Source: a virus
Taxonomy: Duplodnaviria; Heunggongvirae; Uroviricota; Caudoviricetes
Strand: one strand, 5' to 3'
DNA length: 64,000 nucleotides
IMG/VR virus record: IMGVR_UViG_3300029923_000009
Part shown: positions 19,221-55,949 of the stretch, one piece after another
How the letters are laid out: the number at the start of each line of letters is the position of its first letter
Numbering within the stretch: the first letter of the stretch is position 1
The notes under the pieces: generated by a model
Told to the model about the DNA's origin: nothing
The model's database searches: none
What the model saw: only the letters and a program-made list of their open reading frames with translations
Translations under genes and position numbers: made by a program

Positions 19221-20048
19221 ATGAAAAAAGTATTTTCGATTATTTTTCTAACTGTATTAATGTTTACAATGAACAGTTGCTATCGGGTTTCACCAAATGC
19301 AGGTGAAGAGAGTGTGTTAGTGTATAAACCTATGATTTTTGGTGATGGTGGGGTTGATACTACTCCTATCCCAACAGGTTCTATTTGGTGTGTTGTAACT
19401 ACAGATCATTATGAATTTCAGATTACACCAACTACCATTACCGAAGATTTTAAGAATATGATTCCATCGGATAATACACCTGTTTCCTTTTCAGTTTATT
19501 TGAAAGTCCAAATACAACAAGGTAAAACACCGTATTTATATCAAAATTTTGGTGCTAAGTGGTATGAACACAGCCTACAGGCAACATTTAGAACGATGGT
19601 TAGAGATAAGGCAAGTGCTTTTAAAATGTTTGACTTGGCAAGTAAACGAGACATTTCATCTAAATTAGAAAGTGATATTTTCAAAGACTTATCGGCATAC
19701 GCTAAAAAATTAAATATTCCTGTCAAAATTCTACAAGTTTCAATCGGTGCAATTACACCACCTGAACAAGTATTAACTGAAACAAAATTAACAGCAGCAC
19801 AAAATCAAAGTGTATTAACCCAAAATGCAAGGGCTACAGCCGAGCTTTCAAGAAAACAAGCCGAAATAAATAAAGCTATTGCTGATAAATCATACCAAAA
19901 TCAAATGGGTATGAGTGTTAATGAATATCTTCACCTAAGGCAACTTGAAATTGAAAAGGAAAAAGTTGAGTTAATTAAAGATCATGATAATGTTACCATT
20001 ATATTCGGTGGTGGGTCAGGAGTACCAATGACATATCCAGTAAAATAA
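19221..20048 (+). CDS. SPFH (band-7/prohibitin-like) domain lipoprotein (275 aa)
   Basis: N-terminal signal peptide ending in a lipobox-like MNSC; central/C-terminal region has SPFH-like pattern (PPEQVLTETKLTAAQNQ...ARATAELSRKQAEINKAIADK); own promoter 19122-19167 and terminator 20077-20118. Confidence 0.65.
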   Translation: MKKVFSIIFLTVLMFTMNSCYRVSPNAGEESVLVYKPMIFGDGGVDTTPIPTGSIWCVVTTDHYEFQITPTTITEDFKNMIPSDNTPVSFSVYLKVQIQQGKTPYLYQNFGAKWYEHSLQATFRTMVRDKASAFKMFDLASKRDISSKLESDIFKDLSAYAKKLNIPVKILQVSIGAITPPEQVLTETKLTAAQNQSVLTQNARATAELSRKQAEINKAIADKSYQNQMGMSVNEYLHLRQLEIEKEKVELIKDHDNVTIIFGGGSGVPMTYPVK

Positions 20049-23845: not shown

Positions 23846-24127
23846 ATGAAAACGAATTTCAACTTTCAACTAAATAACTGGGAATTAAATTTAATTCTTG
23901 ATGTTAAATGTCAAGAAATAGTTAACGATGTTGTAGATGTAACAATAAGTATTATGGGTTGTAATTTTGAAAATAGATTAGGTATTTTGAATTTAGAAAC
24001 AAGAAAATTAATATGTAAAGAAAAGTTTTCAATTAAACCATATAAAGAAAACGAAGAAATTAAATCTACATATAATTTTATAGTCCCAAAAGATATTGTT
24101 AAACAAATAAAATCATATTTAAATTAA
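23846..24127 (+). CDS. hypothetical protein (93 aa)
   Basis: ATG ORF; class-II promoter GTACATTTGTAC at 23814. Confidence 0.5.
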   Translation: MKTNFNFQLNNWELNLILDVKCQEIVNDVVDVTISIMGCNFENRLGILNLETRKLICKEKFSIKPYKENEEIKSTYNFIVPKDIVKQIKSYLN

Positions 24128-24156
24128 AATAACCATTAAAAAATAAATGTAAGAAA

Positions 24157-24459
24157 ATGAAGAAATTATTATTAGTATTAGCCTTGGCTTTCTCCCTATC
24201 ATCTTGTTATGAGGATGTTAATAAATCAGTAACTAATCCAGCAAAGGAAACAACAAGTTATTTACAGCATTTACCAAAAGATACAACTGTAACGGTTGCA
24301 TATGAACGGCATAGTGTTTATATTTTTGATGCAAAAACTAATTTATTAAAATATAAAGCTGATTCTGAAATAGATAGTGGTTTTTCGATTGATATTTTTC
24401 TTTTTCTTTGTATTTGTGTTATGTTCTTTTTGCTTGGAGCTTTGATAGGTAGTAATTAA
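24157..24459 (+). CDS. lipoprotein with C-terminal TM helix (100 aa)
   Basis: MKKLLLVLALAFSLSSC lipobox; hydrophobic C-terminus. Confidence 0.55.
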   Translation: MKKLLLVLALAFSLSSCYEDVNKSVTNPAKETTSYLQHLPKDTTVTVAYERHSVYIFDAKTNLLKYKADSEIDSGFSIDIFLFLCICVMFFLLGALIGSN

Positions 24460-24468
24460 TGGTATTAT

Positions 24469-24588
24469 ATGAACAAAGAAATATATTTTAAAATTAAAAT
24501 AGGAATTATTAGGTTGATTGTTTTTATAGCTTATGCTGTATTAGGTGTATGTATCGGGTGCGGTTTAATTTATACATTAAAAATATGA
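24469..24588 (+). CDS. hypothetical small membrane protein (39 aa)
   Basis: ATG ORF not in track; hydrophobic; ATGA overlap with the next ORF. Confidence 0.3.
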   Translation: MNKEIYFKIKIGIIRLIVFIAYAVLGVCIGCGLIYTLKI

Positions 24589-24746
24589 TAAAAAGAGCAA
24601 TTGAAACAGAAGACGATTATATTGATAGAAAATATGAAAGTAGTAAACAGGTATTAGAAACATTTTATAAATTAATTTTTATAGTTTTATTTGGTGTTAT
24701 ACTTGGTAAAATTTTTGGTTATGTAATTTTAACCTTTTTAAATTAA
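24585..24746 (+). CDS. hypothetical small membrane protein (53 aa)
   Basis: Replaces track ORF 24549; ATG at 24585 is coupled to the upstream small ORF. Confidence 0.35.
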   Translation: MIKRAIETEDDYIDRKYESSKQVLETFYKLIFIVLFGVILGKIFGYVILTFLN

Positions 24747-24756
24747 TTATAATATA

Positions 24757-24939
24757 ATGATTAGATTTTTGAAAAGAAATTACTATAAACTATTTGATTA
24801 TGCTAGTCGAATAGATAACGATTCTAAAGGGAAATTCAGAGTTAAATATTCAGATGGTAAAACAACAACAAAAATGAGTTATTGGACTGCCAAAACATAT
24901 GCAACTACATTTAATGGGGTAATAATCGACGCATTTTAA
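24757..24939 (+). CDS. hypothetical protein (60 aa)
   Basis: ATG ORF. Confidence 0.4.
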   Translation: MIRFLKRNYYKLFDYASRIDNDSKGKFRVKYSDGKTTTKMSYWTAKTYATTFNGVIIDAF

Positions 24940-24955
24940 TTAAAATCAAAATAAT

Positions 24956-25123
24956 ATGGAATTAACATTTAGAAAAACAGAAACTGATGAAATTATCATT
25001 GAAGGACTTTTCCCTCTACCAGTAGTGTATCAGGATTTAGATACTGCCCTCACCTGTGAATTTGCTACGAAGTTGGAAGAGGCATTAAAGGAATACGGTG
25101 GGAATGTGATTGTAAAATTTTAA
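24956..25123 (+). CDS. hypothetical small protein (55 aa)
   Basis: ATG ORF absent from track. Confidence 0.35.
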   Translation: MELTFRKTETDEIIIEGLFPLPVVYQDLDTALTCEFATKLEEALKEYGGNVIVKF

Positions 25124-25283
25124 ATAATATGAGAAAAATATATATGGTACAGACTTTGAACTTTATAGCTCAAACAAATGTGGATTTTGTAAATGATATA
25201 CTTAAAAATTCAACTCAACAACAGTTGAAAGATGATACGTATTATTTTGTTATGAATTAATTAACAATCAAAATTTTATTGTT

Positions 25284-25541
25284 ATGGCGAATGATTATTT
25301 TAACTATGAACCTACAGCTATTGAATTGAACGAATTCAAAATGGTTAATTCAGGCTATATAAAGCCACCTAAACCATTTGAAATTATCAAACCTACTCAC
25401 GGTTCACTTGTATTAATAGAGGGTAATAATCGAACGATAATAAAGAATAATTTACCAATACCTTTATTACAACATATAAGAAGTAAAATGATAAAAAATT
25501 GTTATAAAAAGAAAAATTTAAAAATAGAACATATAATTTAA
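25284..25541 (+). CDS. hypothetical protein (85 aa)
   Basis: ATG ORF. Confidence 0.45.
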   Translation: MANDYFNYEPTAIELNEFKMVNSGYIKPPKPFEIIKPTHGSLVLIEGNNRTIIKNNLPIPLLQHIRSKMIKNCYKKKNLKIEHII

Positions 25542-25554
25542 AATAAATAAACAT

Positions 25555-25938
25555 ATGGAAATAATAAAAGTTATAATTTTATGGATACTTATAGATATTT
25601 CAATTATCTTAGTCATTATTGAAATTACGAATATATTGGTAAATGGCTATCATTTTATCCATGGAAATGGTGTGAATTTATTAATTGAAGAACTTGATGT
25701 TAGTACATCTTCAATTTTAAGTTCGATGATAGATTTAAAAGGAAAGTCAAGATTGAATGCGCAGTATATATCGAATTCAATGTCAACTTTAATCTTTCCT
25801 TATATTATTAGATGTGGAGAGTTAGGTGATAAAAGGACTACGTATATGATTATTAGGTGGACAAAATCTTATTATCTCATTAAGGATAAATACAAAGAGC
25901 TTTACCCGAAAAAAAAAAACAAACCAAAAATACATTAA
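25555..25938 (+). CDS. membrane protein (127 aa)
   Basis: N-terminal TM helix; followed by terminator 25953-25984. Confidence 0.5.
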   Translation: MEIIKVIILWILIDISIILVIIEITNILVNGYHFIHGNGVNLLIEELDVSTSSILSSMIDLKGKSRLNAQYISNSMSTLIFPYIIRCGELGDKRTTYMIIRWTKSYYLIKDKYKELYPKKKNKPKIH

Positions 25939-25952
25939 ATTTTAGTTGATTT

Positions 25953-25984
25953 AACCACATTATATTTTATTTTGTGGTTTTTTA
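25953..25984 (+). terminator. rho-independent terminator
   Basis: AACCACA ... TGTGGTT followed by TTTTT. Confidence 0.5.
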
Positions 25985-25991
25985 ATATATT

Positions 25992-26037
25992 TTAACAAAT
26001 TAAATTTTTACAAGTAAATGTTTTATAATATCTTTGT
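25992..26037 (+). promoter_or_regulatory. early-class promoter
   Basis: TTAACAAATTAAATTTTT ... TATCTTTGT. Confidence 0.5.
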
Positions 26038-26096
26038 TGCCTAATCAATAAATAAATAAATAAATGATTAATATTAAGTAAAAAAAATATACTGAT

Positions 26097-26444
26097 ATGG
26101 AAATAGAAATAGGTAAAAAATACAATTACTTTGATGATGGAAAAATATGGGAAAGTAGACGGTTGACTGTTGAAATTACAGAGATAATTCCATTTAAAGA
26201 TATTGATGATACAACACTTTGTATTTGGAAAAGTGAGGTTGAACAGTGTTATTGGTTATATTCTAAAGAAACAGACTATTTTGTTAAAGGACTTTTAGAA
26301 ACGGAATATATAGAAATAAAATACGAGGAAATTATTTTTGTTAGAACCTTAGATGGTGGATGGTTTAGTCTCGGATGGTGGGGTGGAAGATTAGATGTAG
26401 ATGGAAAACTTGCCATATTATCAAATAAGAACTCACAAAAATAA
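26097..26444 (+). CDS. hypothetical protein (115 aa)
   Basis: ATG ORF; early promoter 25992-26037. Confidence 0.5.
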   Translation: MEIEIGKKYNYFDDGKIWESRRLTVEITEIIPFKDIDDTTLCIWKSEVEQCYWLYSKETDYFVKGLLETEYIEIKYEEIIFVRTLDGGWFSLGWWGGRLDVDGKLAILSNKNSQK

Positions 26445-26448
26445 TATT

Positions 26449-26673
26449 ATGACGGAAGAAGAAAAATGGTGTCGGCGTTTAAAACGTGTAGTTGATAATA
26501 TGCCCGAAACTTTAGAGGTTTGTATATGTCTAGGTACTATTAATGTTTATTCAAATGGATCTATTCGTAGAAGTTTTGAACAAAGTGGTGATGCAGATGA
26601 AGTTGGTAAATATTCAGAATTTAATTTCACAATTTATGATACAGGGTTCTATGGAAACGAAGAAAGCATTTAA
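26449..26673 (+). CDS. hypothetical protein (74 aa)
   Basis: Track start 26401 overlaps the upstream gene by 44 nt; ATG 26449 is just after its stop. Confidence 0.45.
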   Translation: MTEEEKWCRRLKRVVDNMPETLEVCICLGTINVYSNGSIRRSFEQSGDADEVGKYSEFNFTIYDTGFYGNEESI

Positions 26674-26687
26674 TAAAATATATTAAT

Positions 26688-27116
26688 ATGGAAGACATTT
26701 TTAGAATAGTTACAAAAGCATTTGGTAATAAAGTTGATAAGGGTGGAAGTCCATATGTTTACCATCTAAATAGGGTTGCCGATAAAGTGATGGTCTATTA
26801 TAGCGAAGATTATGAGTTAAAAGAAGCTGCTTTTTGTTATGATCTTTTGGAAGACATAAAAGGTTGGACACCTGAAAAGTTGGGTGAATATGTAAGTCCT
26901 CGTGTTGTTAATTTAGTTAGTATTTTAACGCATAAAGAATATGAACCATATAAAGATTATATTGATAGGGTTGCAATGGATAAGGATGCTATTAAGATTA
27001 AATTAGCTGACTTAGAGGACAATATGGATATTACAAGATTACCTGAATTGACTGAAAAGGACATTGTGCGTTTAAAGAAATACCACAAGTACTACATTTA
27101 CTTAAAAAATTTATAG
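26688..27116 (+). CDS. RelA/SpoT-like HD-domain protein with degenerate HD motif (142 aa)
   Basis: GGSPYVYHLNRVA, AAFCYDLLED and IKLADLEDNM align to the (p)ppGpp-hydrolase HD-domain blocks (SGEPYIxHPLxVA / ALLHDVVED / KLADRLHNM), but the HD dyad reads YD. Confidence 0.55.
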   Translation: MEDIFRIVTKAFGNKVDKGGSPYVYHLNRVADKVMVYYSEDYELKEAAFCYDLLEDIKGWTPEKLGEYVSPRVVNLVSILTHKEYEPYKDYIDRVAMDKDAIKIKLADLEDNMDITRLPELTEKDIVRLKKYHKYYIYLKNL

Positions 27117-27119
27117 AAT

Positions 27120-27338
27120 ATGAAAGTAACACAAAACGGGCTACAGGAATTTCCAGAAGAGAGTGGTTTAATAATGGATGATATTATTAATTTAATGAAT
27201 TTAATAAATAAAAAAGATGGCCATTTGGGTGACATAGTTTCTTGTATTAGAACGACATGTTCAAGCCTGAAATTAAAAGCAGATAAATTATCAAAAATAT
27301 TTGAAGAACAAAAATATGAGACTAATAAAAATAACTAA
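27120..27338 (+). CDS. hypothetical protein (72 aa)
   Basis: ATG ORF. Confidence 0.45.
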   Translation: MKVTQNGLQEFPEESGLIMDDIINLMNLINKKDGHLGDIVSCIRTTCSSLKLKADKLSKIFEEQKYETNKNN

Positions 27339-27624
27339 ATATCTTAGTGCTAGAAGTTTTGATCACTATGTTGTTATATATGATGATTCAAAAACTGTAT
27401 CGGAAATCGATGAAATAGTGGAAGACTGGGGACAGTCCAACCCATCAGGTTCTAATAATGGATATAATCTTAATTGGTCATTTATTGAGGATGAAAAACT
27501 AATTGAAGATTCTTTTCTAAAAGAACTTAAAAGAATATTATTAGATATTGATGAATTACAGAAAAAAGAAATTGAATTGTATACGTATTTTAAATCAATA
27601 AAAGTAAAAGATGTAGAATCATGA
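27316..27624 (+). CDS. hypothetical protein (102 aa)
   Basis: Track start 27301 is TTG; ATG 27316. Confidence 0.45.
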   Translation: MRLIKITKYLSARSFDHYVVIYDDSKTVSEIDEIVEDWGQSNPSGSNNGYNLNWSFIEDEKLIEDSFLKELKRILLDIDELQKKEIELYTYFKSIKVKDVES

Positions 27625-27809
27625 AAAAGAAAGTAAACCTTAAAGATCCTGAAACGGACGAAATTATTGCACAGGTAAATTTACTGACAATTGATTGGTA
27701 TGACGACCTTATACCGACTTGGGAATATTTTTTAGAACAGGTTGGTGGAAATATTGAGGATTTTATAGAATATGTTAATGAAACTACAAACTTAAAAATA
27801 AGCAAATAA
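27621..27809 (+). CDS. hypothetical acidic protein (62 aa)
   Basis: ATGA overlap. Confidence 0.45.
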   Translation: MKKKVNLKDPETDEIIAQVNLLTIDWYDDLIPTWEYFLEQVGGNIEDFIEYVNETTNLKISK

Positions 27810-27810
27810 A

Positions 27811-28008
27811 ATGCAAAAAATAAATAATTTAATAGAAGATTATCAGAGACGAAGTTCAAATATTGAAAGTCAATTAAAATCTTCTAAATGTAAAGAAGAT
27901 AATGTTAATATTAATCGTTTGAGTGCTAAACTTCATTGTTATAAAACGTTTGTAGTTGAACTAGAACGTTTGGTTGATGAAATTAATGAGAAAAATCAAC
28001 GAATTTAA
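27811..28008 (+). CDS. hypothetical protein (65 aa)
   Basis: ATG ORF. Confidence 0.45.
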   Translation: MQKINNLIEDYQRRSSNIESQLKSSKCKEDNVNINRLSAKLHCYKTFVVELERLVDEINEKNQRI

Positions 28009-28043
28009 TTGTTAATTTATTTTGTTAATCCAATACCTTTACG

Positions 28044-28052
28044 TATCTTTGT
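28044..28052 (+). promoter_or_regulatory. -7 box TATCTTTGT
   Basis: 30 nt before ATG 28082. Confidence 0.4.
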
Positions 28053-28081
28053 ATTAGAAATTTAAAGAAGAAAATTATATT

Positions 28082-28411
28082 ATGGAAACAACATTTAGTA
28101 CGATTAATTTTATTGAACCTACGGATGAGTTCAAAAAAGAATTTTTCGATGTTTTGAATATTAAGGAATTTTTTAATATGGACTTAATTGCTTATTCTTT
28201 TTATTATAAAGATGTTTTAAAAGATAATAACCTTAAATTAGATGAACTCGAAAGATCTTTTAATGGGTATGTAAAATTTTATAATTTACAGTATTCATTA
28301 TTAGAAATCTATGAAATGTTCAAAGATTGGACTGAAAATGATTTAACTAATTTCATGGCTTATTATAGACCAATTTTTTTAAAAAATAATAAAGATACAA
28401 ATGAACAATAA
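28082..28411 (+). CDS. hypothetical protein (109 aa)
   Basis: ATG ORF; -7 box 28044-28052. Confidence 0.5.
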   Translation: METTFSTINFIEPTDEFKKEFFDVLNIKEFFNMDLIAYSFYYKDVLKDNNLKLDELERSFNGYVKFYNLQYSLLEIYEMFKDWTENDLTNFMAYYRPIFLKNNKDTNEQ

Positions 28412-28733
28412 AGAATTTATATTATGTGCAGCTATTCATTATAAAAATGGTGCTGAAACAACCGTATATGGGGTTGAAGATGGTGTAATTGTTTGTGGGA
28501 GAAGACATGGAGATTGTTATGCTATTTTGAAAGGTATATTGAATATTGGTGATGATTATAATATTGATGATTTACCCGATAGAGATGAGCAGGGATTTTT
28601 AACATCTGAAAATAGGTTTGTTTCAAGACGTGAAGCGTGGTTTATAGCTAAAAAAAATAAACAAATTAGATTTGGGTTAGAAGCAACAGAGAATGGAGAA
28701 TTTAGTGAATTAATTTCCGAAAACTTATATTAA
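28401..28733 (+). CDS. hypothetical protein (110 aa)
   Basis: ATG ORF overlapping the upstream stop. Confidence 0.5.
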   Translation: MNNKEFILCAAIHYKNGAETTVYGVEDGVIVCGRRHGDCYAILKGILNIGDDYNIDDLPDRDEQGFLTSENRFVSRREAWFIAKKNKQIRFGLEATENGEFSELISENLY

Positions 28734-28747
28734 AATACTAATATTTT

Positions 28748-29026
28748 ATGAAAACAAATATTTTAGATAGAAGATTATCAGTCGAAGATCAAAGTGAAAT
28801 TTTAGAAACGTTGTTTTCTTTTAAATGTGTAAAAACGGATGAAAATGATGATAAACATGTTATTATCTACGATGAAGAGGGTTACGAATTTTATGGTAAT
28901 GATATTAACCTGAAATATGATTTAACAAATATTCGGGGAATTATATGGTATGCCAAAGACATATCAGCTTATAATGCTATTTGGGAACATAACACCAAAA
29001 TCAAAAATCTTTTAAATATAAGATAA
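28748..29026 (+). CDS. hypothetical protein (92 aa)
   Basis: ATG ORF. Confidence 0.5.
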   Translation: MKTNILDRRLSVEDQSEILETLFSFKCVKTDENDDKHVIIYDEEGYEFYGNDINLKYDLTNIRGIIWYAKDISAYNAIWEHNTKIKNLLNIR

Positions 29027-29027
29027 G

Positions 29028-29267
29028 ATGATGGAACAACAGAATATAATAAAAGGCAATAAAGTTAAATTTTACGATTGTTTTCAAGTTTCAATTGATA
29101 AAGATGCATCTGGAACTAATCCAAAACATTACCCTATTGGTATTGTCGATAAGGTTTATATCTATCACAGTATTTTTGGTTATTCTGATCAGGTTTGTGA
29201 CATTAAAATAGGTAATAGAATATCAAGAGCGCATTTCACTAATTGTGTTACCAAAATACCCAATTGA
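29028..29267 (+). CDS. hypothetical protein (79 aa)
   Basis: ATG ORF. Confidence 0.45.
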   Translation: MMEQQNIIKGNKVKFYDCFQVSIDKDASGTNPKHYPIGIVDKVYIYHSIFGYSDQVCDIKIGNRISRAHFTNCVTKIPN

Positions 29268-29269
29268 GT

Positions 29270-29503
29270 ATGCTGAAAAAGAAAAAACTCACAGTTAAAG
29301 AAAAACTGTTTAATGATATTGATAGTGTAATATCAATTAAACTTAGTTTAACGGGGCTTAAAGAGTTCGAAAACTATTTTAGAACCGAACTATTCACTGC
29401 AGGACCCGATCAATGGAATGAGCTTGAAATAGCTATTTGTGACTATAATATGAGAATACAAACTGAATTAGAAACCGAAATAAAAAAACTACTAATAAAA
29501 TGA
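29270..29503 (+). CDS. hypothetical protein (77 aa)
   Basis: Track start 29243 is TTG; ATG 29270. Confidence 0.45.
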   Translation: MLKKKKLTVKEKLFNDIDSVISIKLSLTGLKEFENYFRTELFTAGPDQWNELEIAICDYNMRIQTELETEIKKLLIK

Positions 29504-29793
29504 AAAATATAGAGAAAAAATATACAAAAGAAGAAATTCTTTTATTTAATGAAAATGATTGGGAGTTTGGTCGTAGTAGTGGCTATGCTGGTTATTATCG
29601 GAAAGGATCAGAATATTGTGATAAGGAATCTAATTGGATCTATGAACAAGATTATATGGATCGTAAAAATCTATTGGAAAAGTATTATGAAGATTATAAA
29701 CTACTTCACAATTTCAGACTTGAACAATTAGAATTTGGAAAATACCCCGACTACATCATTCAAGATTTTTTAAACAACAAATATTTTAAATAA
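29500..29793 (+). CDS. hypothetical protein (97 aa)
   Basis: ATGA overlap. Confidence 0.5.
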   Translation: MKNIEKKYTKEEILLFNENDWEFGRSSGYAGYYRKGSEYCDKESNWIYEQDYMDRKNLLEKYYEDYKLLHNFRLEQLEFGKYPDYIIQDFLNNKYFK

Positions 29794-29803
29794 ACAATAT
29801 TAT

Positions 29804-29959
29804 ATGGTATTATTCATTTTAATTTTAGGTTTAATTCTTAATATTTTGAGTGTTTATGTTGATATTAAGAAAAAATATTACTATGTTCTTATATTAAACG
29901 CAATTGCGGTTGTTTTAATATCTTTTGCTATTATTAATCACTTCTTTAAAATTATATAA
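29804..29959 (+). CDS. hypothetical small membrane protein (51 aa)
   Basis: ATG ORF absent from track; two hydrophobic segments. Confidence 0.35.
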   Translation: MVLFILILGLILNILSVYVDIKKKYYYVLILNAIAVVLISFAIINHFFKII

Positions 29960-29963
29960 ATAT

Positions 29964-30308
29964 ATGAAACTAAGCGAAATTCACAATGGTTTAGAAAACC
30001 AAAATATTAGAGAAATGTTATCAAAAAAAATAGGTGATTTGGTTTTTAATTTACCACAAAAAATACAGGTAGATAATAAACTATATATTCTTGATTGGTC
30101 AATTAAAAATGAAGAGGCTGAAATAGCCTATCATACGGAATTATTAAATAAAACAAAAGAAAAACAAGCCTGTAGATTACTAATTAAAATGATGGGTTGG
30201 GAGGAATATGATGTTTCGGATTACACACAATTGGATTTACCTAATTGGATTAACTTTATTGGAACTGAAAACGAATATCATAACCTTTTAAAACAATTAA
30301 ACGTATGA
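29964..30308 (+). CDS. hypothetical protein (114 aa)
   Basis: Track start 29925 is TTG; ATG 29964. Confidence 0.5.
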   Translation: MKLSEIHNGLENQNIREMLSKKIGDLVFNLPQKIQVDNKLYILDWSIKNEEAEIAYHTELLNKTKEKQACRLLIKMMGWEEYDVSDYTQLDLPNWINFIGTENEYHNLLKQLNV

Positions 30309-31652: not shown

Positions 31653-32501
31653 ATGGGAAAAATTAACAGAACACAACTTGAAATTGAAAAACTACTTTTA
31701 GAACCTTTTAAAGTTGGTGAGGTAGTTAGTGTAGACGAACGTTTGGTAGGTAATAGAGGATCTTCCAAAACATCTGCTAAAATTATTGAGATTGATGGTG
31801 ATGAAGTTGTTTTGGAAGCGTTCGGTGGTTATAAAGATAAAAAAACGTATAAAGTTCACATATCCAACTTAGGAAAAAGTATTTATTACGTTGGTTATTC
31901 CCCGATGGTAAGACCATCATATCGCTTAGAAACCATTAATTTCTCACTTGAATCAATTGTTTTTGATTGTGGTTTTGATAGACGTGAAAGAAAATTTAAA
32001 CCAGATGAAAATATTGGTGAAATTACTGTACCAGAATTGAATTGGAACCCATATGTAATTCAATCTGATGGTTCAAAATTTTATTATCAACGAGAGTTTG
32101 TTTGGACATTGGAGGATAAACAATCATTTATTGATTCAATTTATAACAACATATCTTTAGGTAAGGTTATTTTAAGGGAACGTGGTTTTGAATGGAATAG
32201 ACAACAGGCATTACTTGGAAATACGGTGTTTGGTTATAAAGATATTGTTGATGGAAAACAACGTTTGAACTGCATTCTATCGTTTTTACAGGATGAATTT
32301 CCAGATTCAAAAGGATTTTATTATTCTGAATTTTCAAAAGCATCCCAAAACCAATTTTTAAATCACCAATTGCTTGGCTATGCAAAATTAGATGAAAACG
32401 CATCTGATAAAGATGTTATCGATTGTTTCCTTAGAACAAACTTTTCAGGAGTACAAATGAGTAAAGAGCACTTAGAGTATATTAAGACTATTAAATTATA
32501 A
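31653..32501 (+). CDS. protein with DUF262 (ParB/Srx-like, DGQQR-motif) domain (282 aa)
   Basis: Residues ~145-282: FYYQREFVWTLEDKQSFIDSIYNNISLGKVIL ... IVDGKQRLNCI match the DUF262 N-terminal domain of GmrSD-type proteins (QR..VW...Q...LIDSI / DGQQR); a 140-aa N-terminal extension is unassigned. Confidence 0.6.
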   Translation: MGKINRTQLEIEKLLLEPFKVGEVVSVDERLVGNRGSSKTSAKIIEIDGDEVVLEAFGGYKDKKTYKVHISNLGKSIYYVGYSPMVRPSYRLETINFSLESIVFDCGFDRRERKFKPDENIGEITVPELNWNPYVIQSDGSKFYYQREFVWTLEDKQSFIDSIYNNISLGKVILRERGFEWNRQQALLGNTVFGYKDIVDGKQRLNCILSFLQDEFPDSKGFYYSEFSKASQNQFLNHQLLGYAKLDENASDKDVIDCFLRTNFSGVQMSKEHLEYIKTIKL

Positions 32502-36150: not shown

Positions 36151-37734
36151 ATGAAAAATTTAAATGTGAAACAAGACTTGAAAGAATTGGTTACGCAAAT
36201 TGACGTAACTCCAAATGTGAATTTTTTAACAACATTAAGAAATTCTGGTTATAATAATTATACGGCTATTGCTGATATAATTGATAACTCGTTAGATACA
36301 GATGTAAACTCTAAAAACGTTAAGGTTCAAATTAAGAGAACTAAAGATGATTACGAGTTTATTAAAATTTGTGATGATGGGTGTGGTATGAATATTGAAA
36401 CTCTTAATGAGGCCTTTAAGCTTGGTGCGTTAATGGGTAAAAATAAAGAATTTGATCTTGGTTCGTATGGGACTGGGTTAAAGGCAGCGGCTCTATCATT
36501 GGGTCGTAAATTTGTTGTTAAAACTAAAGCGTCAGATGACGATTTTTATATCGCTACATATGATTTGGATGTTATGATAATGACAAATACATTTGAAATT
36601 CCTGTTACAATAGGTAGTTGGGAAGAATATAGTGAATTTAAACGTGAGACTGGAAGTGATATAGGTACAGTTGTGATAGTATCTAAATTAGATAGAATAA
36701 CAAATGCTAATATTACTGTATTCAAGGACATATTAAAAGGTAAACTTGGATTGTTTTATAAGTACTTTATTGATGAATTAAATATTAATTTATTTGTTAA
36801 TAATGAATATATAAAAAGTGTTGATCCAATGCTTAGAAATGAACCATATACTACATGTCTAACATCGAATGAAAAATTTGAGTATAATGAGTCTGAATTT
36901 AGATTCAGCGTATTTAATATTGAGTTCGTTAGCCAATCACTTTCAAATGAAGTAAACCGAAGTTCAGCTTATTCTGGGTTGTATGTTTATAGAAACAATC
37001 GTTTAGTTGGGAGTAGCTTGGATTTAGGTATTGTTGGTAAGGTTGGTGATGGTCACTTAAATGGTCTTAGAATTGAACTATTTTGTAGTGGTGATAGTGA
37101 TAACTTATTTGGCTCAACCTTTAATAAGATTATACACGAAAAAGATAAAAATGAAATCGATCAAGGGTTCAGAGATGTATGTAAAGGTAAACTTCGTGGT
37201 TATATTAAGACAGTAAAAAACAACGAAGATTCTAAAACAACCAACGAAAAGATTAGCGATGATGTTAAAAGTGAAATGGCTGAAATAGTCAAATCAATTA
37301 ACCAAAATCCATTTATTGGAATAAAAAAGGAACGTGGGAAAAATGAGCAACATAAAGATATTATTCCAGCAACAACAGAAAAAGAAAAGAAGGAACCAGT
37401 TGACGATAGGATAAAAAACAAACTTGCTCCTCGAAAAAGAGAAGATAAATTTGCTGATTATCGGTTTACTAAGCTTGGTGAAAATGGGTTAATCTTTAAA
37501 TCGGTTAAGGAACACGGACTATATATTATAGAGATAAATCAAGAGCATCCATTTTGGATTAGATTTTTAAATAATGCAACTCTCCAAACGAAAGATGTAA
37601 TTATTAAAATGTTATTTTCGTTAGGTGTATCTTTAGAAGAAACCGAATATTATAATAACCCTGAAAAGGAAGACTTATTGAATGAGTATTTTATTAAAGT
37701 AAGTGAACGACTAAGGAAGTTTATTATATATTAA
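36151..37734 (+). CDS. GHKL-superfamily ATPase, HATPase_c_3 (MORC/MutL-like) type (527 aa)
   Basis: Bergerat-fold motifs: N box IADIIDNSLD, G1 box DDGCGM, G2 box GSYGTGLKAAALSLG; long Lys/Glu-rich C-terminal extension; monocistronic between a 250-nt gap and terminator 37768-37805. Confidence 0.75.
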   Translation: MKNLNVKQDLKELVTQIDVTPNVNFLTTLRNSGYNNYTAIADIIDNSLDTDVNSKNVKVQIKRTKDDYEFIKICDDGCGMNIETLNEAFKLGALMGKNKEFDLGSYGTGLKAAALSLGRKFVVKTKASDDDFYIATYDLDVMIMTNTFEIPVTIGSWEEYSEFKRETGSDIGTVVIVSKLDRITNANITVFKDILKGKLGLFYKYFIDELNINLFVNNEYIKSVDPMLRNEPYTTCLTSNEKFEYNESEFRFSVFNIEFVSQSLSNEVNRSSAYSGLYVYRNNRLVGSSLDLGIVGKVGDGHLNGLRIELFCSGDSDNLFGSTFNKIIHEKDKNEIDQGFRDVCKGKLRGYIKTVKNNEDSKTTNEKISDDVKSEMAEIVKSINQNPFIGIKKERGKNEQHKDIIPATTEKEKKEPVDDRIKNKLAPRKREDKFADYRFTKLGENGLIFKSVKEHGLYIIEINQEHPFWIRFLNNATLQTKDVIIKMLFSLGVSLEETEYYNNPEKEDLLNEYFIKVSERLRKFIIY

Positions 37735-40329: not shown

Positions 40330-40887
40330 ATGGAATTAAATGAGTTTGGTAGTAAAATCAAGGGTCTTATGGGCTTAAAAGAAAATAAACAAGTAAATGG
40401 TTTTGGTTGTGTGATGTTGTATGTCTACTTTCCAGAATTTAAAGAGTTACAATCTAAAATTGATGAGAAGGATTTATATAATGATGATACAAAGTCATAT
40501 GGTTTTGAAAAATCGGAACATATTACCCTTTTATATGGTCTCCACGAAGAAGTTAAAGATCAACAAGTTAAAGATATTATGAGTAAATTTGATTTTGAAG
40601 ATGTAGAAATTAAAAATGTTTCTTTATTTAAAAATGAAACATTCGAAGTACTAAAATTTGAAGTTTATAAAGAAAAGTATTTATCTAAATGTAATAAGGA
40701 ACTTTCAAAATTACCTAATACAAACGAATATAAAATATTTAATCCTCATTTAACACTGGCGTATTTAAAATTAGGTGAAGGTGATAAATATATTGAAATG
40801 TTTAAAGACCTGAAATATGAATTACAACCAACAAAAATAGTATATTCAAAAATAGATGGTTCGGAATTAAAAATAAAAATTGATTAA
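40330..40887 (+). CDS. 2H-superfamily phosphoesterase (LigT/ThpR- or Acb1-like) (185 aa)
   Basis: Two H-x-T-x motifs (EHITLLYGL and NPHLTLAYL) about 90 residues apart; ~185 aa, the typical size for 2',3'-cyclic phosphodiesterase / 2'-5' RNA ligase family. Confidence 0.65.
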   Translation: MELNEFGSKIKGLMGLKENKQVNGFGCVMLYVYFPEFKELQSKIDEKDLYNDDTKSYGFEKSEHITLLYGLHEEVKDQQVKDIMSKFDFEDVEIKNVSLFKNETFEVLKFEVYKEKYLSKCNKELSKLPNTNEYKIFNPHLTLAYLKLGEGDKYIEMFKDLKYELQPTKIVYSKIDGSELKIKID

Positions 40888-41371: not shown

Positions 41372-43504
41372 ATGAAAGAACTAACTAATTTAATGCAAGC
41401 ACAATTTGATAAGATGTGCGCTACTGGTAAACTTTTTAGGAGTGAAGTTACTGGTCAAAAAGTTTGGGATGTATATCTTCAAGCTTTTAATCCAGAAGAT
41501 AATCCTATTTTTCGAGATCCAAATTCAACAGTTCATAACTGTAATTTCTGTAAAAATTTTGTTCGTAGGTATGGTAATATTGTTGCTATTGGTGATGATA
41601 ATGAAATTATGTCTATTTGGGGTGTTGATGCACCTGAAGAGTATAAAAATTCAGCAAACACATTAAATAATTTAATAGCAAATTCTAAAATAGTTGAGGT
41701 ATTCTTTGAAACATATAATGAATTAAACTCATTACCTTATGAAAAGAATTGTACTAAAACACAAGCTACATTTAAATTAGGTGTTGAAAAAAATACAAAA
41801 AGGTATACGAAAGAGGAGGCTGAAATGTTCGGTGTTGTAAAGCCAAATGAAGAAATAACTTTCGACCATTTCAATTTATCTATATCAAAACAATTCGTTG
41901 ATCAAACTGGTTCTTCAGTTGAAAGTATAATTGGTAATTATAGAGATTCAAAAAATGTTTTTCAACGTGGGATGGAAGAAATTTCATTAGATACATTGAT
42001 ACTTGTAAAAGATTTAATCAATCAGGAGTCACTACTTGATGGTAAAACTCATTTATTTAAGGTTGAAAAAATGATCACGTTTAAAACAGAATATGAGTCT
42101 AAATCTCAAAAAGAGAAAGATAATTATTGCTGGGTGGCTTCATATAATAATCAGCTTGCTAAGTTCCGTAACGAACTGATTGGTGTACTTTGTAGTGAAT
42201 TGTCTGAGGGTAAGGAACTTAACGAAGCTTGTAAATCTTGGAATAAACGTGTTGATCCAATTAATTATATGAAAACAACTACCCCTATTACCAAGAAACA
42301 AATTGAGGAGGCAAAATTATTTGTAGAGGAAAATGGATTTGTCGAATCTTTTGATAGAAGGTTTGCTACCATTGATGATATAAAGGCATCCGAAATACTT
42401 CACGTTAATATGGGGGATGGATCTATTAAAAATGTTTCAATATTCGATAATGTAAAATCTACTTCGACAAGACACAAGAGGAGTGAATTCGATGGTATTG
42501 ATGAAGTTACAATTGATAAGTTTATGTCTGATATTCTACCTAATTGTACCTCTGTGGAAGCCTTTTTGTTAAGTAAACATGAGGGTAATTTGGTTTCACT
42601 TACCACTTCAAACAAGTCTGAAAGTAAGCCTATTTTTAAATGGAATAATAACTACTCTTGGACTTTTAATGGTAATTTAGCAGGTAAATCTCAAATCAAA
42701 GAAGCTGTTAAAGGACGTGGTGGAAATGTGATTGGTGATGTTAGAATAAGTTTGGCATTCCCTCTAACTACTGATGACTACGATCTTCACGTACAAGATA
42801 CTGATGGAAACCATATTTATTATTCAAATGTAAGACAAAAACACAACTCTTCTGGAATGCTAGATTTAGATGCTCAAGGTGTAGACGGTGCTCAAACCCC
42901 AGAAAAAAGAGTAGAAAACATAATATTTACAGATAAATCAAAAATAAAAAATGGAAATATAAAAATTTGGGTTGAAAATTACTCACAAAGAGGATTAAGA
43001 GTTCCATTTGATATTGAAATTGAAATTGAGGGTGATATTACAACATTAACATATGATAGGAATCATTCAGGTAATAAAGCTGAGGTCGGTAATATTGTAG
43101 TTAAAAATGGTATGTTTGAATTACATCCTGATGCTTATATGACTTTAAAGGAAAGTACAAATTTATCAAAAGAAGTTTATGGGTTGGAAACAAATAATTT
43201 TCATAAGGTTAACTTAGTATGCCTTTCACCTAACCATTGGGGTGATAATAATGTTGGTAATAAGCACTATTTATTTATGTTAGATGGTTGTAAATGTCCA
43301 ACAGATATTAGAAGTTTTCATAATGAAAACCTATTACCTGAATTGGCTGAACATAGAAAAGTATTGGAGGTACTTGGTGCGACTAATATGATTAAGCCAA
43401 CAGATAAACAGCTATCAGGTCTTGGATTTAATGCCACTGTAAGGGATGAGATAGTAGTTAGACTACAAGGTTCATTTAAAAGAGTTATCAAAATTAAATT
43501 TTAA
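41372..43504 (+). CDS. large hypothetical protein (710 aa)
   Basis: Longest ORF in the window; class-II promoter 41270-41287; no motif recognised by eye. Confidence 0.7.
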   Translation: MKELTNLMQAQFDKMCATGKLFRSEVTGQKVWDVYLQAFNPEDNPIFRDPNSTVHNCNFCKNFVRRYGNIVAIGDDNEIMSIWGVDAPEEYKNSANTLNNLIANSKIVEVFFETYNELNSLPYEKNCTKTQATFKLGVEKNTKRYTKEEAEMFGVVKPNEEITFDHFNLSISKQFVDQTGSSVESIIGNYRDSKNVFQRGMEEISLDTLILVKDLINQESLLDGKTHLFKVEKMITFKTEYESKSQKEKDNYCWVASYNNQLAKFRNELIGVLCSELSEGKELNEACKSWNKRVDPINYMKTTTPITKKQIEEAKLFVEENGFVESFDRRFATIDDIKASEILHVNMGDGSIKNVSIFDNVKSTSTRHKRSEFDGIDEVTIDKFMSDILPNCTSVEAFLLSKHEGNLVSLTTSNKSESKPIFKWNNNYSWTFNGNLAGKSQIKEAVKGRGGNVIGDVRISLAFPLTTDDYDLHVQDTDGNHIYYSNVRQKHNSSGMLDLDAQGVDGAQTPEKRVENIIFTDKSKIKNGNIKIWVENYSQRGLRVPFDIEIEIEGDITTLTYDRNHSGNKAEVGNIVVKNGMFELHPDAYMTLKESTNLSKEVYGLETNNFHKVNLVCLSPNHWGDNNVGNKHYLFMLDGCKCPTDIRSFHNENLLPELAEHRKVLEVLGATNMIKPTDKQLSGLGFNATVRDEIVVRLQGSFKRVIKIKF

Positions 43505-47312: not shown

Positions 47313-48344
47313 ATGAAAAAACTTTGCAAATTCTCGGACATAGGTCAATTTAGGGAAATTTATTCAACAATTAAACATAGAACGCAATACATTGGTAAGG
47401 ATGAAAATGGGGACTGTATGTATGATACAACAATTCCTCTTCCAATTATCAAAGTTTCAGGTACAATAAAAATTGATGGAACAAACGGAGGGATTTCAAT
47501 GAATAAAAATGGTGAAATCTGGGCTCAATCAAAAGACAATATATTGACTTTAAAGAATGATAATTATAATTTTGCTTTCACGTTAGAATCAAAAAAAGAT
47601 GTTTTTAAAGATCTACTAAATAAAATTGATTTCAAAGGATATGATTACATAACTATTTTTGGTGAATTTGCAGGAAAAGGGATACAGGCTGGAATGGCCG
47701 TATGTCAGCTTCCAAGAATATTTGTTATATATGACATTAAGCGATCATATGAAGATAATTCAAAAGGTGATAATAAATATGCGCCAATAGATCAAATTAA
47801 ACTATTGCGTTCACCTGAAAATGATATTTATAACATATATGACTTCCCAACGTTTGAAGTTGAAATTGATTTTAACGAGCCTCAGGCAGCTTTAGATAAA
47901 CTAACTGAAATAACTACCCAAGTTGGTATTAAATGCCCATTTGGTGACGCTATGGGTGTTGAAGGTAGGGGAGAAGGCATAGTTTACACTTTCTTTACTG
48001 AAACTGGTGAAAAACTTAGGTTTAAAGTAAAAGCCGAAAAAAGTAAAATTTCAAAAACGAAGGAATTGGTTGCAATCGATATAGATAGAATGAATTCAAT
48101 TAATGAATTTATTGAGTATGCTGTTACTGAAAATAGATTAAACCAAGGGCTTGAAAAAATATACGGTAACGGAGTTTTGTTTATTGAGAAGATGGGTGAT
48201 TTCTTGAGATGGTTAGCTAATGATATTATTAAAGAAGAAACAGATGTTTTGATTGGGAATAATTTGGAACCAAAAGCCGTTACAGGTGGTATATCAAAAA
48301 AAGGTAGAGATTGGTTGTTGGCTAAAATAAATAATTTCGAATAG
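47313..48344 (+). CDS. ATP-dependent RNA ligase, Rnl2-like (343 aa)
   Basis: Covalent nucleotidyltransferase motifs: I KIDGTN (cf. T4 Rnl2 KIHGTN), III IFGEFAGKG, IV GEGIVYTF, V LRFKVKAEK; length close to T4 Rnl2. Confidence 0.8.
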   Translation: MKKLCKFSDIGQFREIYSTIKHRTQYIGKDENGDCMYDTTIPLPIIKVSGTIKIDGTNGGISMNKNGEIWAQSKDNILTLKNDNYNFAFTLESKKDVFKDLLNKIDFKGYDYITIFGEFAGKGIQAGMAVCQLPRIFVIYDIKRSYEDNSKGDNKYAPIDQIKLLRSPENDIYNIYDFPTFEVEIDFNEPQAALDKLTEITTQVGIKCPFGDAMGVEGRGEGIVYTFFTETGEKLRFKVKAEKSKISKTKELVAIDIDRMNSINEFIEYAVTENRLNQGLEKIYGNGVLFIEKMGDFLRWLANDIIKEETDVLIGNNLEPKAVTGGISKKGRDWLLAKINNFE

Positions 48345-49151: not shown

Positions 49152-49853
49152 ATGTTTCAAAGCCTATTATTACACATCCCCCATTCAAGTACTTACATTC
49201 CAGATTCTTTTGGAAATATTAATGACTACACATTAATGGGAAATGTTGTTATTCAAACAGATTTATTAGTTGATGACTTATTTTACCACCCAGTAACTAC
49301 AAATGTTAAAACATTAAAATTTATTTATAGTCGGTTTTATTGTGATGTGGAAAGATATTGGGATGACAAAAAAGAACCAATGTCACTAATTGGACAGGGT
49401 GTATATTATAAACAATATTCTGATGGTTCATTAATTAATAGAACCGACTCAAAGGATGATATTAAATTAGTTTACAATGAGCATCACTCAAAATTAAACT
49501 ATATTTCCCAAAAACTTATTGCGGAAAATGGTTCTTGTTTAATCATTGATTGTCATTCTTTTACACCAACGAATGAAAATGAGCCAGATATATGTATTGG
49601 GGTTAATTATGATAAAAATGACCCAGGTCCTGAAACATTATGGTCTATTATAAATCATTTTATTGATAATGGGTATAAATTTAAGATAAATTATCCGTTT
49701 TCAGGATCAATATATCCATCAAAATATTTAAATAAAAACTTAAAATCTATTATGATTGAAGTAAATAAAAATATTTATTTGGGTAATGAGATTAAGTTTT
49801 CGAAATTAAAAAATACAATAAACGAATTATATCATAAATTGTTAAAATATTAA
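49152..49853 (+). CDS. N-formylglutamate amidohydrolase (FGase) family protein (233 aa)
   Basis: HIPHSSTYIP, SRFYCDVERY, LIIDCHSF and SIMIEVNKNIY resemble the conserved blocks of the FGase/zinc-amidohydrolase family (PHxG..P / sRlvvDvNR / DlHS / iEirqdLy). Confidence 0.5.
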   Translation: MFQSLLLHIPHSSTYIPDSFGNINDYTLMGNVVIQTDLLVDDLFYHPVTTNVKTLKFIYSRFYCDVERYWDDKKEPMSLIGQGVYYKQYSDGSLINRTDSKDDIKLVYNEHHSKLNYISQKLIAENGSCLIIDCHSFTPTNENEPDICIGVNYDKNDPGPETLWSIINHFIDNGYKFKINYPFSGSIYPSKYLNKNLKSIMIEVNKNIYLGNEIKFSKLKNTINELYHKLLKY

Positions 49854-50572
49854 TGAAAAATAAACTTTCAATTGTTGCAATTTCCGACCTTCACGGGTAT
49901 CTACCTGAAATAACCGAAGAAGCTGATATAATGATCATCGGTGGGGATATTTCTCCTTTAAATATTCAACGTAATAAACCTAAAACGAAAATTTGGCTTG
50001 AAACAACGTTTCTCGAATGGGTCAATAATTTACCAGTTAAGAAAGTATTCCTTGTGGCTGGTAATCATGATTTTGCGTTAGAGGGTTTATCTGATACTGA
50101 AAAATATTTTTTTGAAAAATTATTTGGCGGAAAACTTAAATATTTAGAAAACGAAACATTTAACCACGTTGATGATAACGGTTGTTCTTGGGTGATTTTT
50201 GGAACGCCTTATTGTCACATATTTAGTTCTGGTTGGGTATTTATGATACCAGATGATAATATGTATTTCAAATTTCTGAAAATTCCAGATGAAGTTGATA
50301 TAATTATTTCTCATGACCCGCCTTATGGTGTTGGTGAAGTTGATGTTATTTTGGAACAATATAATTTAAATGAACCAATCACGCATATTGGAAATAAACC
50401 TTTAGCAAAAAGATTGCAACAAATCAAATATAAATTTCTATGCTGTGGTCATATACATAGTGGTAGCCATATACCATATGAATTTAATGGTGGAAAATGT
50501 GTAAACGTTTCGATCAAAGATGAAGATTACCAACCAATCTATCATCCATTTTATTATACATTAGAAAAATGA
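49853..50572 (+). CDS. calcineurin-like metallophosphoesterase (239 aa)
   Basis: Motifs DLHG, GGD, GNHD, HD and GHIHSGSH in the canonical order; TAATG overlap with the upstream gene. Confidence 0.8.
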   Translation: MKNKLSIVAISDLHGYLPEITEEADIMIIGGDISPLNIQRNKPKTKIWLETTFLEWVNNLPVKKVFLVAGNHDFALEGLSDTEKYFFEKLFGGKLKYLENETFNHVDDNGCSWVIFGTPYCHIFSSGWVFMIPDDNMYFKFLKIPDEVDIIISHDPPYGVGEVDVILEQYNLNEPITHIGNKPLAKRLQQIKYKFLCCGHIHSGSHIPYEFNGGKCVNVSIKDEDYQPIYHPFYYTLEK

Positions 50573-51246: not shown

Positions 51247-51468
51247 ATGAAAAATAATAATAATATTAAAACTGGAATAATCGATATTGATAATATATTA
51301 TCAAATGGGATTAATCCAACTGAATTAGAATTAATTATTGGCCCACCAACAGTTGGTATGAAACATATGTCAGTATATATGGAAAGAGCTAAAAGATTAA
51401 TGAAGGAAGCTGGTATTGGCGTTATTGAAACTAATACAGACCCAATTATAACTATCTGTAATGAATAA
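51247..51468 (+). CDS. hypothetical protein (73 aa)
   Basis: ATG ORF. Confidence 0.45.
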   Translation: MKNNNNIKTGIIDIDNILSNGINPTELELIIGPPTVGMKHMSVYMERAKRLMKEAGIGVIETNTDPIITICNE

Positions 51469-52162
51469 CGACACTATTAAAATATGTTTCATAGGGGACA
51501 TCCACGGAAAATCTGTTTGGAAAAAATTCATAAAAGATCCAACCATTAACTTTTTCGTGTTCTCTGGTGACTATGTTGATAATGATATGGGTATGGTTAT
51601 TTCTGATGAAGAAATGATTGAAAATTTTCAAGACATTATTGATTTCAAACGTAAAAATATGAATAGTGTTATTGTCCTAAAAGGGAACCACGATTTAAGT
51701 TACTGGTATTTAAACTATCCAATATTTAAATGTTCTCGTTTTAGGGAAAGTATTGCGATGGAACTAAACGACCTATATTCTTTCAATAAAGATTTATTCC
51801 AAAACGCTTGGCAATATAAAAATGTGGTTGCGACTCACGCTGGAATACAACATAATTGGTTTATAAACGAGTTTAAAGGTGATATCACACTAAACGTAGC
51901 TGATCAACTAAATAATCCGAAAGATGAAAATCAGTTAAATGCATTATATCAAGTTGGTAAAATTAGGGGTGGGTGGAAAGATGTTGGTGGTATATTTTGG
52001 GCTGATAAAAGTGAACTTAATAAATCATTAAAAGGAGTTATTCAGGTTGTTGGGCATAATAGAGTTAAAGATATTTCATATTATATAAATAAAAATTATG
52101 GTGAAATATATTTTATTGATTGCTTAGGCTATAAAGAAAACTGTCTAATATTAGAACTATAA
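51461..52162 (+). CDS. PPP-family (lambda phosphatase/ApaH-like) metallophosphatase (233 aa)
   Basis: GDIHG ... GDYVD ... GNHD motif series, spacing as in GDxHG/GDxVDRG/GNHE phosphatases. Confidence 0.75.
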   Translation: MNNDTIKICFIGDIHGKSVWKKFIKDPTINFFVFSGDYVDNDMGMVISDEEMIENFQDIIDFKRKNMNSVIVLKGNHDLSYWYLNYPIFKCSRFRESIAMELNDLYSFNKDLFQNAWQYKNVVATHAGIQHNWFINEFKGDITLNVADQLNNPKDENQLNALYQVGKIRGGWKDVGGIFWADKSELNKSLKGVIQVVGHNRVKDISYYINKNYGEIYFIDCLGYKENCLILEL

Positions 52163-55391: not shown

Positions 55392-55949
55392 ATGAAGTAC
55401 CTATTTCTTGATTTTGATGGTGTTTTAAACGTTATACCCGAAGGATTTGATGATTTTGGTTCGATATTTCATAAACATTTTGTGTCAAATCTTAAACGAA
55501 TAATTGATGAGACTGATTGTAAGATCATAATTACATCTTCTTGGAGACAAAGTGGTTTAAAATTTATTCAAGATATGTGGGGATTTAGAAATTATCCAGG
55601 GGAAATACTTGATGTGACACCTACACTACGGTTACAAAAAGGTGGTTCTATTCAATTTTGGAATGATAAATTATCAAGGCACCCAACAGAATCAATTGGT
55701 GGATATTCAATACCAAGAGGGTGTGAAATAGAATATTGGCTCAATCACGAAAGTGAAAAATTTGGAGAAATTGAATCGTGGGCTTGTGTTGACGACGACA
55801 CAGATTTTTTATTTAACCAAAAAGATAACTATGTTCAATGTAGCGAAAACCATGATCACATAGATAAAATAGATTACGGTTACGGTTTAACAGATATATG
55901 TACACAAAAGGTAATTGATATTCTAAATAATGTTAAAATAATTGCTTAA
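55392..55949 (+). CDS. HAD-superfamily phosphatase (185 aa)
   Basis: Motif I FLDFDGVLN (DxDGV), motif II IIITSSW, motif IV CVDDDTD; class-II promoter 55357-55370. Confidence 0.7.
   Translation: MKYLFLDFDGVLNVIPEGFDDFGSIFHKHFVSNLKRIIDETDCKIIITSSWRQSGLKFIQDMWGFRNYPGEILDVTPTLRLQKGGSIQFWNDKLSRHPTESIGGYSIPRGCEIEYWLNHESEKFGEIESWACVDDDTDFLFNQKDNYVQCSENHDHIDKIDYGYGLTDICTQKVIDILNNVKIIA

Follow-up and report, generated by a model that had tools for sequence, protein, structure and literature searches.

A phage homologue of the Aph1/PbcSpo small alarmone hydrolases with tyrosine in place of the metal-binding histidine of the HD dyad

The gene, its active site and its family

The window, by which we mean the whole 64,000-nt stretch of phage DNA that was analysed, has all of its credible genes on the + strand. 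The gene considered here is an ATG-to-TAG open reading frame at 26688..27116 (+; the coordinates include the stop codon), which encodes an HD-domain protein of 142 amino acid residues; the short reading frames of 53 and 43 aa on the complementary strand are without support. The three sequence blocks by which an earlier note on this DNA had recognized a hydrolase domain of the RelA/SpoT type are all found in the translation, namely PYVYHLNRVA (residues 22-31), AAFCYDLLED (residues 47-56) and KLADLEDNM (residues 105-113). The central observation of that note holds as well: where a His-Asp pair is expected, the protein has Tyr-Asp, with codon 51 being TAT (nt 26838-26840) and the following GAT encoding D52.

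In RSH hydrolases, the catalytic metal is held by four protein ligands, i.e. the His of motif HD2, the His-Asp pair of HD3 and the Asp of HD5, whereas the attack is performed by the Glu-Asp pair of HD4 (PMC9293644). With the residues so defined, our alignments indicate that the window protein has kept the HD2 ligand as H26 (26763..26765, +), the catalytic pair of HD4 as E55-D56 (26850..26855, +) and the entire DLEDN block (27009..27023, +), which extends from D108, the metal ligand of HD5, to N112, the HD6 residue that contacts the ribose and the base (PMC9293644). The full set of ligands and catalytic residues reads H26, Y51-D52, D108 and E55-D56, and the His of HD3, replaced by Tyr in the Y51-D52 pair (TAT GAT, 26838..26843, +), is the sole change among them. 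Hence the His-Asp dyad, which is required in the Aph1 family, is absent. Also absent is the Arg of HD1, the residue that stacks on guanine in the (p)ppGpp hydrolases; its place is taken by D17 (26736..26738, +), which corresponds in the alignment with 7SMG to D24 of Aph1, a determinant of adenine specificity (PMC10083569). The respective column is occupied by Asp in 322 of the 336 domains of the profile alignment.

As regards the family of the protein, several lines of evidence converge. It matches PHROG 990 ('metal-dependent phosphohydrolase') at 4e-38, and the best solved structure by sequence is the '(p)ppApp hydrolase' of PDB entry 7SMG (E 3.4e-23 in phmmer, covering residues 2-140), whereas the (p)ppGpp hydrolases (RelH, Rel, SpoT) yield matches with E of 0.01 or worse in the search of solved structures. 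An AlphaFold2 model built from the 120-sequence alignment (mean pLDDT 96, pTM 0.90) matches 7smg_A in Foldseek with a TM of 0.88 and an rmsd of 1.6 Å at 41% identity; for Mesh1, PaSAH and RelH, the TM values are 0.72-0.82 and the identity is 18-26%. Over its full length, the protein is also 35% identical to gp220 of the Salmonella phage PVP-SE1 (E 5e-26). A search with the Pfam profile HD_4 (PF13328), which the earlier note had proposed as a check, does produce a match, but at 15.5 bits it stays below the gathering threshold of 27.2 bits (E 0.014); the His-bearing relatives P0002-P0005 carry precomputed PF13328 matches.

Members of the Aph family act specifically on nucleotides of adenosine and not on those of guanosine, and the family signature consists of D24, R96, D116, R119, K133 and Y134 in the numbering of Aph1 (PMC10083569). 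All six residues are present in the window protein. Specifically, besides D17, these are R94 (26967..26969, +), the adenine-specificity residues D114 and R117 (27027..27038, +), and K131-Y132 (27078..27083, +), which correspond to the residues that contact the pyrophosphate; N114 of Aph1 is kept too, as N112. In two members of a sister clade, P0003 (L010:1666-2094) and P0004 (L012:2537-2965), the HD His is retained but the position of Aph1 D116 shows the change D114N; this column is 100% Asp in the 30 more distant members of the 35-sequence alignment and Asn in 39 of the 336 domains of the larger set.

Judged by its sequence and predicted fold, the protein is shown to be, by descent, a homologue of the Aph1/PbcSpo adenosine 3'-pyrophosphohydrolases. 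The 7SMG match, the fold and the HD motifs bear out the previous description of a small phage hydrolase of the RSH type at the level of the superfamily, and the alignments confirm that the His of the dyad has given way to Tyr while the other motifs stay. The assignment to the (p)ppGpp hydrolases, on the other hand, has to be abandoned: with D17 in place of the HD1 Arg, all six Aph1 residues present and HD_4 below its threshold, the protein belongs to the adenosine-specific branch.

Comparison with the characterised members of the superfamily is instructive. Aph1, encoded by a prophage of Bacteroides caccae (PDB 7SMG; Ahmad et al. 2023, PMC10083569), is likewise phage-borne, has the same single-domain, all-helical HD fold and nearly the same size (about 143 aa vs 142 aa), and shares the signature residues and the Asn listed above. 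The two proteins differ in the dyad, which is H53-D54 in Aph1 and Y51-D52 here, and in their surroundings: Aph1 adjoins Apk2, a (p)ppApp synthetase toxin fused to MuF, and a second immunity gene, Tis1, whereas the window gene adjoins small unannotated ORFs. The full-length homologue gp220, which falls into the PbcSpo subfamily (Jimmy et al. 2020, PMC7229694), is encoded on its own in the accessory part of the genome of a large virulent myovirus, and that phage encodes an Rnl2-type RNA ligase, as the window encodes an Rnl2-like one. This protein neutralises all five toxSAS toxins tested, namely CapRel, PhRel, PhRel2, FaRel and FaRel2 (PMC7229694). It retains LHDVLED, in contrast to the window protein, in which the Tyr probably impairs the activity. 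Rel/SpoT, Mesh1, PaSAH and RelH (Pfam HD_4) are members of the same superfamily and possess the same six-motif active site, HD1-HD6, but their identity to the window protein is only 18-26% and their HD1 Arg is Asp in it.

The Aph1/PbcSpo-type family is large and is common in big virulent phages. A library clustered at 50% contains 8,190 of its representatives when the cut-off is E ≤ 1e-3 and 1,751 when it is E ≤ 1e-10, and 269 INPHARED phage records contain a homologue. Two family members, P0267 (316 aa) and P0323 (272 aa), are tandem-domain proteins with a degenerate N-terminal copy, in which Lys stands for the HD His and further catalytic residues are lost, and a C-terminal copy with the catalytic residues unchanged, a layout that resembles the arrangement of pseudo-hydrolase and active domain in long RSH proteins. 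P0182 (441 aa) contains four matched stretches, all of them partial domain matches only.

Distribution and origin of the tyrosine

When considering a change in a metal-binding residue, it is important to ask how rare this change is. Column 51 was read in the 35-sequence alignment, in the 120-sequence alignment and in the profile alignment, which comprises 326 proteins with 336 domains. The residue is His in 327 of the 336 domains (~98%), and the HD motif was found in all of the >10,000 jackhmmer hits collected by the authors of the Aph1 study (PMC10083569). Tyr is confined to P0105, an unrelated tip of the tree, and to the window protein, which enters the count twice, under its own name (WIN) and through the identical database sequence P0001; P0123 has Lys, as do the degenerate copies at the N-termini of the two tandem-domain proteins. 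The closest relatives of the window protein, P0002-P0005 and two JGI variants, with 66-73% identity, are all syntenic, and all six read FCHDLLED, with CAT or CAC at codon 51 where the window has TAT. Judging from these codons, the Tyr is the product of a single C→T transition (CAY→TAT), presumably the kind of substitution that mutation pressure favours in a genome with 27% GC.

Thus, the question raised in the earlier note, whether the Tyr is conserved in homologues, is answered in the negative. According to the same note, homologues restoring the His would indicate either a sequencing error or a strain-specific change; the latter half of this statement agrees with the data, the former does not, given that an identical protein is read on 23 contigs. 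Since the closest homologues all restore the His, the change is lineage-specific and does not define a 'YD' subfamily.

Changes of catalytic residues in general were found in roughly ten of about 320 sampled family members (~3%), always at the tips of the tree. Those with a single change are D108Y, D56G (twice), E55R, E55K and D52E, and several replacements are combined in P0105 (Y51 and N55), P0114 (three changes) and P0123 (four changes). Among the ~320 sampled members there is no clade with a conserved degenerate motif. This confinement to the tips suggests that an accessory function which is dispensable is lost or weakened from time to time, and not that a class of pseudo-enzymes has been selected.

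The second occurrence of Tyr, in P0105, was considered as a possible sign of recurrent selection of the YD pair and rejected: P0121, which is 85% identical to P0105, has His (HDVLED), and the patch that introduces the Tyr also removes the catalytic Glu. The genes for P0105 (L017:2501-3025) and P0121 (L018:477-1001) are identical at the nucleotide level except for two patches, one at codons 74-102 and a smaller one at codons 124-134. The main patch is dense, consists almost entirely of non-synonymous differences and extends across the HD/ED motifs (HDVLED → YDVFND); it could result from recombination with a divergent allele, from local diversification, or from a chimeric assembly.

A one-base difference from the family consensus, as observed here, is what an error of sequencing or assembly might produce. 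The identical protein, however, is present in independent JGI, ENA and Logan assemblies, where it is read on the 23 contigs mentioned above, the longest of 263 kb, and where 33 blocks of the collection have it in their index; over about 4.5 kb, the nucleotide sequence of two such contigs is 100% identical to that of the window. The possibility of an artefact is effectively refuted by these data, and we assign it virtually no weight. The 90%-identity cluster of the window protein has one member, and no His allele is known at ≥90% identity: an exact-pattern scan in which either C or T was allowed at codon 51 gave 0 matches in JGI metagenome contigs and 0 in IMG/VR, and a looser pattern for the clade retrieved two more relatives, both with His. 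The sampled population of the window phage is clonal, and the allele, being fixed on at least 23 contigs without a known His counterpart, is not obviously deleterious.

The possibility that the gene is a decaying pseudogene was rejected as well. The ORF is intact, the dN/dS values against four relatives are 0.09-0.20 (with dS saturated, >1.2 to the nearest relatives), and the window branch is not accelerated. Furthermore, the protein, at 67-73% identity to its orthologues, is conserved at least as well as the products of the flanking genes, for which the identity to the orthologues is mostly 37-77%, with two outliers at 87% and 90%. Of the 12 private changes on the window branch, H51Y alone affects a column of strong conservation, and several of the remaining ones are retained ancestral states. 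The combination of an intact gene with this pattern around H51Y fits a recent mutation and equally fits continued selection on a protein that is still useful, be it through activity or through binding.

Genomic neighbourhood

The window has a GC content of 27%, and its 148 ATG-initiated ORFs of ≥60 aa, all on the + strand, cover 88% of the length. It comes from a large uncultivated phage without a close relative in INPHARED or IMG/VR: a megablast search of positions 24000-30000 against INPHARED gave no match, and a scan of IMG/VR with the window protein gave no relative. There is no second, intact paralogue in the window, inasmuch as a search of its six-frame translation with the family HMM finds only the gene described here. 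The ten flanking ORFs show no significant match to a Pfam family, and a Pfam scan that covered 30 of the 32 window ORFs with ≥150 aa revealed no RelA_SpoT synthetase domain.

None of the 148 ORFs is preceded by a Shine-Dalgarno-like motif at -20..-4, against a background of about 10%, and the leaders (-19..-4) contain 55-70% A and 1-6% G. The lack of such motifs, along with the low GC content, suggests that initiation is independent of Shine-Dalgarno sequences, as in Bacteroidota hosts. The leader of the hydrolase gene is of the same kind as those of its neighbours, so that the gene is in a normal expression context.

Farther downstream, the window contains a cluster of genes of the RNA-repair type (40330-63271, all on the + strand). 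It includes a gene with a weak match to LigT/2H phosphoesterases (40330-40887), an Rnl2-like RNA ligase (47313-48344), an FGase-like gene (49152-49853), two Metallophos (calcineurin-like) phosphoesterases (49853-50572 and 51461-52162), a weak match to P-loop/Zeta-like kinases (53316-54188), a HAD domain of the HAD_SAK_2 'Swiss Army Knife RNA repair' kind (55392-55949) and an RlaP nucleotidyltransferase (62135-63271); PNKP is present in a relative. The cluster may represent a tRNA-repair counter-defence arsenal. These genes suggest an investment by the phage in reversing host defences directed at RNA, in line with the ancestral role proposed below for the hydrolase; they are, however, located 13-35 kb downstream of its gene.

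Other genes of the window belong to a variety of families. The gene at 60856-62142, directly upstream of the RlaP gene and overlapping it, encodes a protein of 428 aa that contains DUF723 and a treble-clef zinc finger and weakly matches the CapR-homology domain. An SPFH/Band_7 protein is encoded at 19221-20048, a GmrSD_N-domain protein at 31653-32501, and a 710-aa protein that matches PHROG 1735 (unknown function) at 6.5e-209 is encoded at 41372-43504. By far the best-conserved gene of the neighbourhood is the one at 36151-37734, the product of which, an HATPase_c_3 (MORC/GHKL-like) ATPase of 527 aa, shares 90% identity with the orthologue in L007.

Consequences for activity and alternative readings

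The following scenario can be envisaged. The ancestral protein would have been a phage hydrolase that undid the work of toxic alarmone synthetases (toxSAS, Tas1/Apk) by removing the 3'-pyrophosphate from (p)ppApp, the product of enzymes of the FaRel or Tas1 type. By descent, pyrophosphorylated tRNA ends would be a possible second target; two small alarmone hydrolases, MESH1 and ATfaRel, have been shown to remove the 3'-pyrophosphate from the CCA ends of pyrophosphorylated tRNA as well. In one phage lineage, a single C→T substitution (CAY→TAT) would then have turned the metal-binding His of the HD dyad into Tyr, with the fold, H26, D52, D108, the catalytic E55-D56, N112 and the six residues of adenine and pyrophosphate specificity all kept. 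The most likely outcome is a hydrolase that is strongly impaired or dead but has an intact substrate pocket, and the allele, hypomorphic or null, would have become fixed and be tolerated in a clonal phage population.

A severe or complete loss of turnover through H51Y is suggested by the role of the His as a metal ligand and by the behaviour of two mutants: the HD→AA variant of Aph1 no longer protects against Apk1 (PMC10083569), and the D54A replacement in ATfaRel abolishes neutralisation (PMC7229694). The scattered tip changes in ~3% of the family members and the lack of a YD clade would speak for accident more than design. We found no paper in the literature on a His→Tyr replacement in RSH hydrolases. 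The reading that we put forward, with a probability of about one half, is that the gene is a crippled or dead allele of a counter-defence hydrolase and has no new role; we infer from the considerations above both that the activity is lost and that the protein has taken on no new role.

Could the enzyme still be active? With the other catalytic and specificity residues intact, the whole gene under purifying selection, its syntenic position conserved and the allele fixed in an apparently successful phage (at least 23 contigs), it is conceivable that H26, D52 and D108, joined by water or by the hydroxyl of the Tyr, hold the metal, so that degradation of (p)ppApp or de-pyrophosphorylation of tRNA continues as counter-defence. 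The metal preference might shift in this case, to Mg2+ or to Fe3+ with a tyrosinate ligand; Mg2+ is known to prefer oxygen ligands. Aph1 is active with Mg2+ as well as with Mn2+ (PMC10083569), and, given this use of Mg2+, some residual activity of the Y51 protein is conceivable. However, a His that is ~98% invariant across 336 domains, in a motif common to all >10,000 jackhmmer hits, does not appear to be easily replaced, and the function of Aph1 does not survive the HD→AA exchange. Moreover, as inferred from the geometry of the side chains, Tyr reaches roughly 1.5-2 Å beyond His, and ligation of the metal would need a rearrangement. Retention of hydrolase activity is, in our estimate, possible but doubtful.

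A protein that has kept all the substrate-binding signature residues and lost one metal ligand might also serve as a trap, a possibility raised in the earlier note: it would bind (p)ppApp, or tRNA with a pyrophosphorylated 3' end, but not turn it over, and in this way sequester a toxic or signalling nucleotide. Degenerate HD domains do have precedents; thus, the pseudo-hydrolase domain of RelA is a degenerate HD domain with a non-catalytic role. Inactive HD-GYP proteins in general are of this kind, and one of them, the 'YN-GYP' protein PA2572, also has Tyr for the HD His, has lost detectable phosphodiesterase activity, being inactive on c-di-GMP, and yet remains regulatory, with its biological role kept (PMC3411652). 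PA2572 and the RelA pseudo-domain, however, belong to other HD families, in which the degeneracy is stable, conserved and involves more than one residue, whereas in the window phage there is one substitution in one lineage. Had a sponge been selected, one would expect a clade of such proteins, but the Tyr is conserved in no relative. In addition, the toxSAS enzymes generate product on the millimolar scale through depletion of ATP, and a 16-kDa protein that sequesters its ligand 1:1 would hardly make up for a catalyst. The D54A variant of ATfaRel gives no protection (PMC7229694), and our survey of the literature found no paper that describes an alarmone sponge. It seems unlikely that the window protein is one.

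Finally, the substrate or the chemistry might have changed, with NADPH-like compounds (as in the case of Mesh1), 3'-phospho RNA ends or second messengers of defence systems as examples of new targets. The promiscuity of RSH hydrolases, with NADPH as a substrate of MESH1 and pp-tRNA as a substrate of SAHs, would be compatible with such a change, as would the presence in the window of the RNA ligase, RlaP, HAD_SAK_2, the two Metallophos genes and the weak LigT match. But the specificity residues are the same as in the His-bearing relatives, a differing metal ligand affects catalysis and not recognition, and the RNA-repair genes are separated from the hydrolase gene by the distance given above; we consider a changed substrate highly improbable. 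Neither this reading nor that of a trap is specifically favoured by any of our results. More broadly, the chance that the protein is a natural substrate-trap form, whether an alarmone sponge or a shield of tRNA ends, or harbours a Tyr-ligated metal centre with a new chemistry appears rather small from the sequence. If true, the substrate-trap form would be the first hydrolase-derived alarmone-sequestering protein with an anti-defence function.

Returning to the reading of a crippled or dead allele without a new role, what is new here is a single-lineage variant of a catalytic site, within an already characterised hydrolase family and not within a new system. That phages employ small alarmone hydrolases to counter toxSAS, as well as defences and toxins based on (p)ppApp, is known. 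There is no ligand-bound structure of an Aph protein among the solved-structure matches, and the Y51 form, if active or tight-binding, would offer a ready-made substrate-trapping variant for structural work on this family. If the Y51 variant is dead, it represents one more case of the turnover of accessory genes in phages; if it is active or binds tightly, this would mean either that Tyr can be accommodated in the HD metal site, or that phages can convert a hydrolase into a sequestering protein.
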